Virus record (IMG/VR): IMGVR_UViG_2671180849_000001
Reading direction: 5' to 3' (one strand)
DNA: 6,902 nt
Source: a virus
Lineage: Duplodnaviria > Heunggongvirae > Uroviricota > Caudoviricetes
Below the pieces are notes generated by a model. It ran no database searches, had not been told where the DNA came from, and worked only from the letters and a program-made list of their open reading frames with translations. Shown here in pieces: positions 2,952-6,902 of the stretch; within the stretch, counting starts at the first letter, position 1, and every line of letters starts with the position of its first letter. The position numbers were made by a program, and so were the translations under genes.

Positions 2952-3155
2952 ATATCACCTCAAATAAGTTGTTTGCTGCGAAAGTAAATACGCTTAAGTT
3001 ACCTGTTATTTATCCCACCAAGTTCCGTATCTATCTATCTATCCAGTTACACCAATCATCGACACTCCATTTTGTTGTGTCGCATTTTTGCAACTGGCAT
3101 GAATATCTACCTTCTTTGTAAAGTCGGCGTTTGACTTTCTTGAGCATGGCTCACC

Positions 3156-3497
3156 TCAATCGTAATAAGCTGGAATTGATTTTCCGCGTTGCTTCTGGCG
3201 GCCTGAGCAAGTCACACCCATTTCACTGCGTGGCTTGCGGTAGTAAATACGGTTCTGTTTACGCTCGACTTCTTCTGCCTTCTGGCAGCGAAGGCTTCCG
3301 AGTGATATTGCTTTTTCAGAAAGGCTTAAACGTTTTCTCGGGGCTTCCTGAACAGGTTCCTCACTGTCTGTGCCGAAGATCGAATCGATGATGTTGCATA
3401 TAGCATCACGCTCGATAGCCAGCTTTCTGCGCCGCTCATGACGGCGAGTTTTGGCATTTCCTGCAAATGTTGATTTCCCGTACACGATTACCGTCAT
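3156..3497 (-). CDS. N: N-family transcription antiterminator, 113 aa, with a P22 gene-24-type arginine-rich motif
   Basis: Internal ATG at 3497..3495 of track ORF 3156..3581, preceded by GAGGA. Product starts MTVIVYGKSTFAGNAKTRRHERRRKLAIERDAICNIIDSIFG, matching the P22 N ARM peptide GNAKTRRHERRRKLAIER. The C-terminus ...AEEVERKQNRIYYRKPRSEMGVTCSGRQKQRGKSIP resembles lambda/phage-21 N. P22-type boxB lies upstream. Confidence 0.85.
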   Translation of the reverse strand: MTVIVYGKSTFAGNAKTRRHERRRKLAIERDAICNIIDSIFGTDSEEPVQEAPRKRLSLSEKAISLGSLRCQKAEEVERKQNRIYYRKPRSEMGVTCSGRQKQRGKSIPAYYD

Positions 3498-3616
3498 GAT
3501 GTTTTCCTCATGTGAAATGGCTTTGGGGGTGATGTGCCAGATGCTGATCTTCTGGTTGCTGTCGTTGCAGCTGCAATTCACATCACCGCCAAATCCATCT
3601 CGTTTGGTATCTGTTT

Positions 3617-3651
3617 GCGCTTTGTCAGCGCCCCATCGAAGTTAAAGAGCC
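3617..3651 (-). promoter_or_regulatory. nutL: boxA plus P22-type boxB hairpin
   Basis: Minus strand reads gGCTCTTTAAc (boxA; plus 3641..3651), a 10-nt spacer, then GCGCTGACAAAGCGC (plus 3617..3631). That is a 4-bp stem with a TGACAAA loop, which matches the P22 boxB-left RNA as I recall it. It lies about 120 nt upstream of the N start. Confidence 0.7.
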
Positions 3652-3776
3652 TGCCAATCTGTTCCGTTTGGCTGCCAGCATCCTGCTGACGGCGATAATA
3701 ATGAACTAATAGTTCGATATTATCAAGAACTGCAAGTACGAGATTTTGCAACTCTTTAATTTTATTAGATAAGTTT

Positions 3777-3805
3777 TTGATATGTAATGAAATTTATTTT
3801 TGCAA
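3777..3805 (-). promoter_or_regulatory. Tentative pL promoter (-35 TTGCAA, 17-bp spacer, -10 TATCAA) in the AT-rich region upstream of nutL
   Basis: Best sigma-70-like match on the minus strand between the terminator at 3911..3942 and nutL. The match is weak and a second TTGCAA at 3746..3751 is an alternative -35. The start site is unknown. Confidence 0.25.
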
Positions 3806-3910
3806 AGATTGAAGATTGGTCTGTAGGGGAGAAAGGACTGTATTGCTGGCGTGTTAGTTCGTGGGTTAGCACATATGCGGATGTTAAATAGGGGAGGCGA
3901 ACGTGAGGTA

Positions 3911-3942
3911 AAGAAAACCCGGCGCAGAGGCCGGGTTTTTCT
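3911..3942. terminator. Bidirectional rho-independent terminator immediately downstream of the accessory cassette
   Basis: Plus strand reads aagAAAA-CCCGGC-gcagag-GCCGGG-TTTTTct: a 6-bp GC stem flanked by an A-run on one side and a T-run on the other, so it is terminator-like on both strands. It abuts the stop codon (3941..3943) of the 258-aa gene. Confidence 0.7.
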
Positions 3943-4717
3943 AGGCTACCAGAGAGTCAATCCAAGAGTCTCTGGTATGGAATGGCAACACTCGTGCGGT
4001 ATCATTAAATAGTAGTGATAGTTGCTGTAGCTCAGGTGTTAACCCATCGCTGTCAACTATTACAAATCTATTGTTTATGTCAGGAACGACCTGACTTAAG
4101 TCAACAATCTTCCCAACTGTTGAGTGGGCAGTATTCCATCCTTTACTGCTGGCAAGGCTTACCGTAAACCCGCGTTTTGGTGGTATTAGTCGAGACTCAT
4201 TCCTTAGCGTTAACGGAACAGTAATGTTATGCCCACTAATACCTTTCACTTTTTCCTTTAAGGCTAGTCGCTTCCCAAGCCCTGCTGATTTTAAGTAACT
4301 GATTACACATTTTTCGAACTTATCGTCTTTGACCTCAGCATACCAATCAGCAGTTTGGGCGGATGCAAGAATCCCACCACGAATAACATTTGCAGTTACC
4401 TGTCCAACGGACGACTCATCTGCCCACGCAGATATCTCTCCAGAGTCATTTAATGAAATTCCTTGCGAAGCGAGTGATGACCTGATCAGATCAATTTTCT
4501 TTTTAGTCAGGTGGATGCCGCGTGATTCAATATTCATCAATGTATCGCAGTAGTCTGTAACCCTATACTGACCACTCATCTCTTGAACGAATACGCTTAT
4601 CTGCTCACAATCATCGTAGTATGTGAAGGGACTAATAACGCGCAGCAACGTGTCGCTCATTGGGTGGCATTCAAACCCGAGCTTAGATATGACTGTTGAA
4701 CACGTTACATTTCCCAT
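3941..4717 (-). CDS. Hypothetical protein, 258 aa, no family recognised; downstream gene of the two-gene cassette at the rexAB-equivalent locus
   Basis: Track ORF MGNVTCSTVISKLGFECHPMSDTLLRVISPFTYYDDCEQ.... The ATG at 4717 overlaps the upstream gene by 13 nt (coupled arrangement). An alternative start is the ATG at 4660 (MSDTLL...), which has no clear Shine-Dalgarno. No long hydrophobic segment, no Walker motif. Confidence 0.7.
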   Translation of the reverse strand: MGNVTCSTVISKLGFECHPMSDTLLRVISPFTYYDDCEQISVFVQEMSGQYRVTDYCDTLMNIESRGIHLTKKKIDLIRSSLASQGISLNDSGEISAWADESSVGQVTANVIRGGILASAQTADWYAEVKDDKFEKCVISYLKSAGLGKRLALKEKVKGISGHNITVPLTLRNESRLIPPKRGFTVSLASSKGWNTAHSTVGKIVDLSQVVPDINNRFVIVDSDGLTPELQQLSLLFNDTARVLPFHTRDSWIDSLVA

Positions 4718-5247
4718 GATAGCTGACCTGATTTATCTTGATTCGGTAAAGGTGGGCTGCCTTCATATATGATATTAAGCGCCTCGCAAAAATAATTCCA
4801 GTAGCCAAAAAAATCATCTGGCTTGATGTTCGTTTCAAGCTTGAGTGCAATTTCTTCCCCAGCTGATTCGAAGTACATGTGATAGTGAGGACCTCGAGCC
4901 ACCTCAACAAAATCTGGATGGTGCACTATAGATTTATTACGGTGTGACTTGTTATGCGCAGGGTACGGGTCAAGCGCGTAAATGCGCCTGTCATGAAGAA
5001 ACATCACAAATGAAAGCTTCACTATATCCACCCCTTCAACGATAGGAGAACGCCAGTGAAGCATAAATCTTATGCCTGTGATTGGGTTGCCAATTTCATC
5101 AAAAGCTTTGAGATCCAATTTAAACCAGATTGGGGTTCGTCCCTCACTTCCGGTCCACGAAACTCCGCTAAAAGTTACTTTTTTCAAGCGAGTAATAGCT
5201 TGGTCAACCTCTTTCTGGGTAGGCTTAAAGTCGCCTTTTTTAGCCAC
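4705..5247 (-). CDS. Hypothetical protein, 180 aa, no family recognised; His-rich central segment; upstream gene of the cassette
   Basis: Track ORF; the first codon is GTG (plus-strand cac at 5245..5247), preceded by GGTGAT 9 nt upstream. Product MAKKGDFKPTQKEVDQAITRLKK... contains FLHDRRIYALDPYPAHNKSHRNKSIVHHPDFVEVARGPHYHMYFE. Same strand as cI, directly downstream of it. Confidence 0.7.
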   Translation of the reverse strand: MAKKGDFKPTQKEVDQAITRLKKVTFSGVSWTGSEGRTPIWFKLDLKAFDEIGNPITGIRFMLHWRSPIVEGVDIVKLSFVMFLHDRRIYALDPYPAHNKSHRNKSIVHHPDFVEVARGPHYHMYFESAGEEIALKLETNIKPDDFFGYWNYFCEALNIIYEGSPPLPNQDKSGQLSWEM

Positions 5248-5344
5248 TGATTCGTATCACCATGAAAGTTATTGTTAATACCTATGCTTCTTGTCACCCA
5301 AACGTCTCTTCAGGCCATTGGTTACCAGCTATGTGACGATGAAG

Positions 5345-6052
5345 TCACGAACTTTTAATCCATTCCCTTGCCTCGATGTCATCTAGGTGGCGAGATTGCT
5401 TCAAAATACCAGCCACATACTCCACCTTTGCTACTTGATGATAAGGCAACGTTATTGGCCTGTGGTCTTGATTGATGCTTGTAAATTGGTATTCTCCGTC
5501 TCTGTCATAGCCAAGAACCTTGATCATGTTGTGCCCTTCAATGGTTCTGACAAACACTTCATCACCTGGGAATACTTTGGTGTTAGGCTCAATGAGTACA
5601 TATTCTCCTGATTTAATTCTGGGCCACATGCTGTCTCCTTTTACACGAAGACCAAAGGCATCTGGATCATCGCTATAAATCTTGAGCCACCCATCGCGCT
5701 CTTCGGTCATCTCGATGGCACCATCAACACCAAGAATTGCCTCACCAACCACGCGCACTAACCCTTTTTTTAATTTGCCAACAATTGAAAAAGTATCTTC
5801 ATCATTCGCTCCATTTAACGAAGTGCCGTGCTGAAGCCAAACAACATCAACGTTTAGAAATTTCGCAAGCGCATTCATTTTTTCCTGGCGTGGTAAAGAC
5901 TCAGCATTAAACCATTTGCTAACGCCTTTGGACGAAAGAGAAAGGGCACGGGCTATGGCCATTCCCCTACCATGTTCATCAAGACCAGCTTCTTTACAGG
6001 CTTGCGCTAGCCGCTGGGCGAATTCTTTGCGCACTTTTTCATTCTGAACCAT
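5345..6052 (-). CDS. cI: CI-type prophage repressor, 235 aa: N-terminal HTH domain plus C-terminal LexA/S24-like autocleavage domain; not lambda immunity
   Basis: Track ORF MVQNEKVRKEFAQRLAQACKEAGLDEHGRGMAIARALSLSSKGVSKWF... with C-terminal ...LRVKGDSMWPRIKSGEYVLIEPNTKVFPGDEVFV..., the S24-type Ser-containing motif. Divergent from cro across an operator region. Confidence 0.9.
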   Translation of the reverse strand: MVQNEKVRKEFAQRLAQACKEAGLDEHGRGMAIARALSLSSKGVSKWFNAESLPRQEKMNALAKFLNVDVVWLQHGTSLNGANDEDTFSIVGKLKKGLVRVVGEAILGVDGAIEMTEERDGWLKIYSDDPDAFGLRVKGDSMWPRIKSGEYVLIEPNTKVFPGDEVFVRTIEGHNMIKVLGYDRDGEYQFTSINQDHRPITLPYHQVAKVEYVAGILKQSRHLDDIEAREWIKSS

Positions 6053-6130
6053 GAGTACGATACTAAAGCACTTGCAAAAACTTTCAGTTCAATCATAATG
6101 CGTACTGAAAGTACGAAAAAGGGTATTCCT
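6053..6130. promoter_or_regulatory. OR / pRM-pR divergent control region with dyad-symmetric operator candidates and a pR promoter
   Basis: pR on the plus strand: -35 TTGCAA (6072..6077), 16-bp spacer, -10 CATAAT (6094..6099). Palindromes: CGTACTgaaAGTACG (6101..6115), AGTAcgaTACT (6054..6064) and the dyad CTTTCAGT...ACTGAAAG (6081..6111). The cI ATG lies a few bp from the left operator candidate. Confidence 0.5.
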
Positions 6131-6358
6131 ATGCAAAATCTTGATGAGCCGATTAAAGGTGTCGGCATCCCTGAAGTTGCGAAGGCTTGTGGAGTTAGCG
6201 AAAGGGCTGTCTATAAGTGGCTCAAAAACGGCTTCCTCCCTAAGACTGAGTTTTTTGGGAAAACTAAATACGCATCAAAAATCGAAGAGATTTCTGGTGG
6301 CAAATATCAAGCAAGCGAAATGCTTGAAATAAGCAAAAAGAACCTTCTGGCTGCATAA
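6131..6358 (+). CDS. cro: Cro-type repressor, 75 aa, HTH
   Basis: Internal ATG at 6131 of track ORF 6098..6358 gives MQNLDEPIKGVGIPEVAKACGVSERAVYKWLKNGFLPKTEFFGKTKYASKIEEISGG.... First gene of the rightward operon, divergent from cI. Confidence 0.8.
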   Translation: MQNLDEPIKGVGIPEVAKACGVSERAVYKWLKNGFLPKTEFFGKTKYASKIEEISGGKYQASEMLEISKKNLLAA

Positions 6359-6365
6359 GTAACAC

Positions 6366-6400
6366 CGCTCTTTATCAATCTGCACCGCCGACAACGCGGT
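6366..6400 (+). promoter_or_regulatory. nutR: boxA plus P22-type boxB hairpin
   Basis: CGCTCTTTA (boxA, 6366..6374), then ACCGC-cgacaac-GCGGT (6384..6400): a 5-bp stem with a loop containing GACAA, matching the P22 boxB-right as I recall it. Located between cro and cII. Confidence 0.7.
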
Positions 6401-6411
6401 AACTAATTAAG

Positions 6412-6431
6412 CACTCATCGAAAGATGAGTG
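6412..6431 (+). terminator. Hairpin at the tR1 position (CACTCATC-gaaa-GATGAGTG) followed by a T-rich tract
   Basis: 8-bp stem with a GAAA tetraloop, then ttagtgattattta. Sits between nutR and cII where lambda has the (rho-dependent) tR1. The structure is seen directly; its function is inferred. Confidence 0.3.
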
Positions 6432-6464
6432 TTAGTGATTATTTACCTATGGGAATAGTAAGAA

Positions 6465-6761
6465 ATGACACAAACAAGTTACAGCAAACTATCACAGCGC
6501 GACGTTGATCGCGCAGAAACAGATTTACTCATCAACCTGTCAACGCTTACCCAGCGCGGTCTGGCAAAGATGATTGGCTGTCATGAATCGAAGATAAGCA
6601 GAACAGACTGGAGGTTTATTGCTTCGGTCTTGTGTGCTTTCGGAATGGCATCAGACATCAGTCCGATTAGTAGGGCTTTTAAGTATGCGCTTGATGAAAT
6701 CACAAAGAAAAAACGCCCGGCGGCAACCGAGCGTTCTGAACAAATCCAGATGGAATTCTGA
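6465..6761 (+). CDS. cII: CII transcriptional activator (lysogeny establishment), 98 aa; C-terminus lambda-identical, N-terminal/HTH part divergent
   Basis: Track ORF MTQTSYSKLSQRDVDRAETDLLINLSTLTQRGLAKMIGCHESKISRTDW...; the tail ...KKRPAATERSEQIQMEF matches lambda CII as I recall it. A 32-nt gap to O, as in lambda. Confidence 0.85.
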   Translation: MTQTSYSKLSQRDVDRAETDLLINLSTLTQRGLAKMIGCHESKISRTDWRFIASVLCAFGMASDISPISRAFKYALDEITKKKRPAATERSEQIQMEF

Positions 6762-6784
6762 GGTCATTACTGGATCAATCCACA
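6707..6784 (-). ncRNA. oop: oop antisense RNA (~77 nt) overlapping the 3' end of cII; includes its intrinsic terminator
   Basis: Position corresponds to lambda oop. Terminator on the minus strand: CGCTCGG-ttgccg-CCGGGCG (plus 6714..6733, one mismatch) followed by TTTTTT (plus A-run 6708..6713). The pO promoter lies just upstream. Confidence 0.6.
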
Positions 6785-6790
6785 GGAGTC

Positions 6791-6819
6791 ATTATGACAA
6801 ATACAGCAAAAATACTCAA
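6791..6819 (-). promoter_or_regulatory. pO promoter for oop RNA (-35 TTGAGT, 17-bp spacer, -10 CATAAT), lying within the start of O
   Basis: Minus strand reads TTGAGT-atttttgctgtatttgt-CATAAT-gactcctg, placing the transcription start near 6783, the expected oop 5' end. Confidence 0.55.
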
Positions 6820-6902
6820 CTTCGGCAGAGGTAACTTTGCCGGACAGGAGCGTAATGTGGCAGATCTCGATGATGGTTACGCCAGACTATCAAATATGCT
6901 GC
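6794..6902 (+). CDS. O: Replication initiator O, N-terminal 36 codons; continues beyond the window end
   Basis: ATG at 6794 preceded by AGGAG; translation MTNTAKILNFGRGNFAGQERNVADLDDGYARLSNML matches the lambda O N-terminus as I recall it. Confidence 0.9.
   Translation, partial: MTNTAKILNFGRGNFAGQERNVADLDDGYARLSNML

Follow-up and report, generated by a model that had tools for sequence, protein, structure and literature searches.

How can the RNA-binding end of a lambdoid N antitermination protein and its two RNA targets stay matched when the DNA around them is reshuffled? The locus analyzed here raises this question, since it was originally predicted to carry a P22-type arginine-rich motif in N and P22-type boxB hairpins at both nut sites, swapped in together within an otherwise lambda-type Red and replication backbone. 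The window, by which we mean the whole stretch of 6,902 nucleotides, is a 6.9-kb early regulatory region of a lambdoid E. coli prophage. Its layout is canonical for lambdoid phages, with pL, nutL, and N on the minus strand and pR, cro, nutR, a hairpin, cII, and O on the plus strand (Table 1). The prophage of E. coli strain AMSHJX01 matched the window at 99.7–99.9% identity throughout, with the exception of a 202-bp duplication. On the evidence below, the window is very probably the early region of a mosaic lambdoid E. coli prophage using P22-specificity N antitermination, in which N is chimeric and its motif and the two nut sites were inherited as a trio.

Table 1. Positions of the genes and regulatory elements in the window
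Feature	Positions	Strand	Description
Minus-strand genes		minus	exo (N-terminal part, 1-419), bet, gam, kil/cIII, ea10, ral, 38-aa ORF, N, two accessory genes, cI-type repressor
Plus-strand genes		plus	cro, cII, start of O
N antitermination gene	3156-3497	minus	113 aa; ATG start, MTVIVYGK; GAGGAAAA upstream
Crossover zone within N	3270-3317	minus	codons ~61-76, KAISLGSLRCQKAEEV
N leader, nutL to N start codon	3498-3616	minus	long hairpin adjoining the N ribosome-binding site
nutL boxB	3617-3631	minus	GCGCTGACAAAGCGC / GCGCUGACAAAGCGC; 5-bp stem, GACAA loop; fold -7.1 kcal/mol
nutL boxA	3643-3651	minus	GGCUCUUUA; aligns with annotated P22 nutL boxA GCTCTTTAAC
Candidate pL	3698-3726	minus	TTGATA-17-CATTAT; from a consensus scan only; upstream of nutL as in lambdoid organization
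Candidate pR	6072-6099	plus	TTGCAA-16-CATAAT, upstream of cro; from a consensus scan only
nutR boxA	6366-6374	plus	CGCUCUUUA; also the left breakpoint of the nutR cassette against 933W
nutR boxB	6384-6400	plus	ACCGCCGACAACGCGGT / ACCGCCGACAACGCGGU; GACAA loop flanked by a C-C mismatch; fold -5.9 kcal/mol
Candidate terminator, tR1 position	6410-6433	plus	10-bp hairpin and U-rich tail between nutR and cII; terminator-like match

The backbone was compared with lambda. Nucleotide identity was ~98% over 1–2976 and 6700–6902, and no alignment was obtained over 2977–6699 apart from a 50-bp match (3893–3942, 90%). Bet, Ral, Kil, CIII, and the first 36 aa of O were 100% identical to their lambda counterparts, while Exo matched at 138/139 residues, Gam at 98.6%, and Ea10 at 98.4%. 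The claim that exo, bet, gam, ral, and O are lambda-identical holds at the protein level (98.6–100%), with nucleotide identity at ~98%. CII shared only 42% identity with lambda CII over the aligned part (88/98 residues), and the immunity region was 933W-like. By BLASTN, the non-lambda block 2977–6699 is a patchwork whose nearest relatives differ by segment. The segment after N had no counterpart in lambda, 21, or P22. The 3′ part of N was phage 21/HF4s-like, and the 5′ part of N, nutL, and pL were 1H12-like. The accessory genes (3941–5247) showed a different affinity again, and cI-cro-nutR-cII was 1H12-like and also 933W-like apart from the nutR cassette. Because of this patchwork and the 933W-like immunity, the term lambda backbone fits the Red-to-ral genes and O, but not the rest of the window.

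A 202-bp segment of the window occurs as a tandem direct duplication (1608–1809 and 1811–2012; copies 98% identical, with one extra base between them). It spans kil and the 3′ part of cIII and yields an extra kil that is truncated (MDKKLMAIQ...) and an incomplete cIII. Only one copy of this unit is present in lambda, 1H12, 933W, a Stx2a phage, and the AMSHJX01 prophage. The duplication could stem from unequal crossing-over between two related prophages or could be an assembly artifact. A match to the Rfam family Lambda_thermo, the cIII mRNA thermoregulator, was found at 2012–2070 on the minus strand (88.5 bits). The duplication's right edge lies directly against the end of this match, so the regulatory 5′ region is retained by the upstream cIII copy only. 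Between the repressor gene and pL, at the position of rexA/rexB in lambda, lie two overlapping minus-strand genes (3941–4717 and 4705–5247) encoding a 258-aa DUF1828 protein and a 180-aa protein with a weak DUF6978 match. Both fall into PHROGs of unknown function, and their matches to the PADLOC candidate defense system PDC-M24 were modest (B: 6e-7; A: 1.5e-3). The two genes may be a prophage-encoded defense pair. Next to N, a 38-aa cysteine-rich ORF (MLKKVKRRLYKEGRYSCQLQKCDTTKWSVDDWCNWIDR, 3031–3147, minus strand) starts 9 nt past the N stop codon with its own ribosome-binding site. It matched phrog_1871 (4e-18, unknown function) and carries no annotation in the AMSHJX01 prophage.

Directly downstream of candidate pL and nutL lies the 113-aa ORF expected for N; a longer ORF (3156–3581) begins at a GTG upstream of the N ATG. 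N was aligned with P22 gp24, lambda N, and phage 21 N. Pairwise alignment with P22 gp24, taken from the annotated genome BK000583, gave 40/42 identical residues over positions 1–42, and the arginine-rich motif GNAKTRRHERRRKLAIERD was identical in the two proteins. Residues 43–60 were of the E. coli 1H12 lineage type, and residues 60–113 were ~90% identical to phage 21 N and HF4s N, with lambda N more distant. A search with phrog_271 (anti-termination protein N-like) matched N at E 2e-45. The Pfam family PF25694 (N_peptide, E 5e-26) matched residues 1–76 only, using profile positions 1–76 of 100. Among solved structures, lambda N chain 6gov_N was matched at E 5e-9 over residues 14–110. In that match, residues 77–110 correspond, in 6GOV, to the C-terminal part of lambda N (ERKNQRTWYSKPGERGITCSGRQKIKGKSIPLI), a stretch through which lambda N binds RNA polymerase, and the NusA-binding stretch had no confident alignment. 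The same search with full-length N did not return the P22 peptide entry, whose chain is probably shorter than the library's 20-residue minimum. Free N is expected to be mostly disordered.

The two ends of N are therefore of different origin. Full-length homology to P22 gp24 is absent: tblastn to P22 covers residues 1–75 at 69%, and residues 43–113 of the window's N are unrelated to gp24, with P22 ending in ...LPGVALYAAGHRKSKQITAR and the window's N in the phage 21/lambda-type ...ERKQNRIYYRKPRSEMGVTCSGRQKQRGKSIPAYYD. Since the P22-type match is limited to residues 1–76 and the C-terminus is phage 21-type, N is a chimera that belongs to the P22 class by its specificity domain only. The original assignment of its N-terminus to P22 and of its C-terminal half to the lambda/phage 21 kind agrees with these alignments. 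BLASTN, which had been proposed for locating the breakpoints, placed the crossover in a short zone. 1H12 aligned over 3270–3936 at 91.8% and phage 21 N over 3193–3317 at 92%, so that the two alignments, 1H12-like on the 5′ side and phage-21-like on the 3′ side, share codons 61–76, encoding KAISLGSLRC.... The motif SLGSLRC is common to both parents in the protein alignments, and the crossover point likely lies within it.

This N is widespread. The AMSHJX01 prophage encodes an identical protein (annotated WP_001504518.1). At least 80% of the N region was found in 18 complete E. coli genomes, 13 of them with the full length at ~99%, and related sequence was present in more than 1,000 genomes. The RefSeq label at the N position varies by genome between 'hypothetical protein' and 'transcriptional antitermination N peptide'.

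Both boxB hairpins were found exactly at the predicted coordinates and strands. The nut arrangement is canonical, with nutL (3617–3651, minus strand) between pL and N and nutR (6366–6400, plus strand) between cro and cII. Each boxB had one exact match in the window, and with up to 2 mismatches allowed, shuffled sequence was expected to give 0.01 (nutL) and 0.00 (nutR) matches. These expectations rule out a chance origin of the hairpins. Both are base-for-base identical to the boxBs in the annotated nutL and nutR features of P22 (BK000583), as had been predicted, and the 34-nt nut sites (boxA, spacer, and boxB) differ from those of P22 at 2 positions each. The nutL boxB is also the exact 15-mer RNA of the NMR structure 1A4T, the P22 N-peptide/boxB complex. 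The 1A4T peptide NAKTRRHERRRKLAIERDT matches residues 14–32 of N at 18/19 positions (peptide and RNA sequences from PMC11480772). With motif GNAKTRRHERRRKLAIERD in N and GACAA-pentaloop boxBs at both nut sites, the locus falls into the P22 specificity class. Phage 21, HF4s, and lambda differ from the window in both their arginine-rich motifs and their boxB hairpins. Neither lambda boxB (GCCCUGAARAAGGGC) nor the pattern used for phage 21 nutL, which matched a different hairpin, occurs in the window. A search of the nut sites and the N leader against Rfam gave no match, the cIII thermoregulator being the only Rfam hit in the window, so no curated RNA family speaks for or against boxB.

The leader between nutL and the N start codon also resembles that of P22. 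A fold of 3490–3620, a stretch that extends a few bases into boxB and into the N start, gave −44.8 kcal/mol with a z score of −4.67, and 0/200 shuffles were as stable. The P22 leader (3845–4006 in the P22 locus, L001) likewise forms a long hairpin (−54.4, z −3.4). The helix at its base, GAGAUGGNUUUGG / CCAAAGCCAUUUC, is kept in both P22 and the window, and the interior differs. This hairpin looks like a counterpart of the RNase III site in the lambda N leader. On the right side, the fold of 6400–6470 around the hairpin at the tR1 position had a z score of −4.98, making it a candidate for a terminator that N would have to override.

Mosaic N proteins of this kind have been described before. In phage L, gp24 begins with 75 residues of the P22 type and ends in an unrelated sequence, both nut sites carry identical boxBs, and the protein is functionally interchangeable with P22 gp24 (PMC8022706). 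Mosaicism between the N-terminal and C-terminal parts of N was also noted for phage epsilon34 (PMC2629481). The P22-type N/boxB module in a coliphage is thus real and common, and it was already described in phage L. With P22 itself (BK000583), the window shares the start of N, the base of the leader helix, the motif, and both boxBs; its host is E. coli, however, and its immunity and surrounding genes are not those of P22. ST64T gp24, built like that of phage L from a P22-type N-terminus and a C-terminus unlike that of P22, aligns with the window's N over the full length at 64.6% and has the same end (QKQRGKSIPAYYD), but differs in the middle of the C-terminal half (...RDVNPLGNKIHAV...). L and ST64T are Salmonella podoviruses with other immunity regions than the window. 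Among coliphages, HF4s and phage 21 share the C-terminal 54 residues of N with the window at ~90% identity. 1H12 shares N residues 1–71, nutL, cI, cro, nutR, and cII at 92–97.5%, but its N has a P22/933W-type C-terminus, unlike that of the window. The N of Stx2a phages is 88% identical over residues 1–109. 933W has its Red genes, cI, cro, and cII in common with the window but its N (motif RRTQFKGNSRSRRRER) and its nutR cassette are of another type.

The pairing of N motif and boxB was examined in two surveys, which overlap in some contigs and in which nut types were assigned by explicit sequence classes. The first covered 80 IMG/VR viral contigs encoding an N with the P22-type motif. P22 boxBL was present at nutL in 78/79 loci in which the nutL region was found, the remaining one being a single-base variant (...AAGUGC), and nutR was located in 75 loci, all of which had P22 boxBR there. 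In these contigs, the motif was joined to four kinds of N C-terminus: window-like (10), phage 21-like (22), P22/933W-like (40), and ST64T-like (8). Beside nutR, the 75 loci carried at least nine unrelated Cro types, including lambda Cro, P22 Cro, and 933W-type Cro. The second survey held the neighboring gene constant and covered 80 contigs whose Cro is 100% identical to that of the window, 72 of which could be scored for both N type and nutR type. The two types were concordant in 72/72. The P22-type motif occurred with the P22 nutR boxB in 38/38 contigs and the 933W-type motif with UCGCUGACAAAGCGA in 31/31, and two further N types each occurred with their own boxB (2/2 and 1/1).

Alignment with 933W defined the edges of the exchanged segment at nutR. 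The two sequences are identical through the end of cro to ACACCGCT inside boxA, then carry different cassettes, and become similar again at the cII ribosome-binding site; the nutR break thus falls inside boxA. Together with the identical-Cro survey, these breakpoints indicate that nutR is exchanged as a cassette of ~90–120 nt in step with N, which lies beyond the repressor gene. The surveys support a matched inheritance of the N motif and both nut targets.

The main alternative is linkage. N, nutL, and nutR lie within ~3 kb, and their match would follow from common ancestry alone, with no need for selection on specificity or for a modular swap. The closest relatives, the 1H12 lineage, do share two separate segments with the window at 92–97.5% identity, one holding nutL and the 5′ part of N and the other cI-cro-nutR-cII, and only about four distinct N/nutR pairings occur in the single Cro background. 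The number of independent N/nutR exchange events is small, and the 72/72 concordance could largely reflect a few clonal lineages instead of many independent exchanges. Against linkage, however, the motif/boxB trio flanks at least nine unrelated Cro types and is fused to four C-terminal kinds. In the identical-Cro background, moreover, the cassette of nutR has sharp edges at boxA and the cII ribosome-binding site and always changes with N across cI. Two sites would not stay matched through repeated replacement of the DNA between them by linkage alone, and we consider this explanation quite unlikely. Inheritance of the motif and its nut sites as a trio remains the preferred reading. As to the original claim that motif and boxB were swapped in together, the matched inheritance stands (72/72; 80 contigs), but a single event and its direction are not demonstrable.

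Three contigs (L096, L152, and L153) had appeared as exceptions in the Cro survey and were rejected as such, having been misclassified. Each encodes an intact P22-type N with the end ...SITAR, followed by a fossil phage 21-type N C-terminus. In L096 (4386–5164), and likewise in L152 and L153, the P22-motif N is followed by an 88-aa zinc-finger-like ORF and then by the phage 21-type remnant. The leftover fragment is a fossil of the replacement of a C-terminal module. In one E. coli genome, a DUF7167 gene is annotated between two N fragments. Separately, eleven viral contigs (L025, L030, L031, L034–L036, L042, L076, L079, L085, and others) combine a lambda-type Cro with a P22-type nutR and a P22-motif N. 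From their sequences, they are predicted to be cases of lambda immunity driven by P22-specificity antitermination.

The elements seen directly in the sequence suggest how the system would operate, with binding and read-through modeled on P22 and lambda. Transcripts from pL and pR would carry nutL and nutR, respectively, each with boxA, spacer, and boxB. The arginine-rich motif of N would bind the GACAA-loop boxBs, as in the P22 N-peptide/boxB structure, and boxA would recruit the host factors NusB/NusE. The phage 21/lambda-type C-terminal half of N would engage NusA and RNA polymerase. Polymerase modified in this way would read through terminators into the Red genes on the left and into cII-O on the right, the 6410–6433 hairpin being one candidate. 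Over evolution, the motif and the two nut sites are kept as a trio, and what surrounds them is shuffled: the immunity genes, the backbone on either side, and the C-terminal part of N.

That the module has instead decayed, leaving N or the nut sites as nonfunctional relics, is highly improbable: the odd 202-bp tandem duplication in kil-cIII and the many defective prophages of E. coli would fit such decay, but N is intact with a ribosome-binding site, an identical N protein occurs in several independent contigs and genomes, and the boxAs and boxBs are perfectly conserved over dozens of loci while spacers and the leader interior vary. Conserved boxA and boxB beside variable spacers and leader interior are a signature of purifying selection.

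The comparison with 933W bears on where specificity resides. In 933W (L008; 3825–3891 and 7307–7352), the nutL boxB GCGCUGACAAAGCGC equals that of P22, and the nutR boxB UCGCUGACAAAGCGA differs from its P22 counterpart in the outermost pair only; 933W also has a long structured spacer. The nutL boxB is therefore not exclusive to the P22-type motif, since phages with a 933W-type N carry the identical hairpin. The 933W motif GNSRSRRRER resembles the P22-type GNAKTRRHER. These identical or near-identical boxBs suggest that the difference in specificity between P22-type and 933W-type N may not reside in boxB alone. Among the papers searched, none links H-19B, boxB, and P22.

The identical nutL boxB, the same nutR loop, and the similar motif raise the possibility of cross-talk with Shiga toxin prophages. 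In a host that also contains a 933W-type Stx prophage with the same cI/cro immunity, the P22-type N of a non-toxin prophage such as this one could act in trans at the nut sites of the Stx prophage or compete for them, and could thereby modulate early transcription and ultimately induction of the toxin phage. We regard this as rather unlikely. If it were true, the strict 72/72 pairing would place specificity in parts of the nut sites other than boxB, for example the spacer hairpin.

For the lambdoid family, the locus is a textbook illustration of how N keeps its RNA-binding end matched to its two RNA targets amid reshuffling, with little significance beyond annotation. In practical terms, genes labeled 'hypothetical protein' at the N position in several E. 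coli genomes are P22-specificity N genes. Recombination concentrates in the C-terminal part of N, where at least four alternative modules occur on one RNA-binding end, and nutR behaves as a very small exchangeable cassette whose left joint is boxA, a host-factor site. The forward-looking point is that N may cross-talk between co-resident prophages with GACAA-loop boxBs, including Shiga toxin phages.
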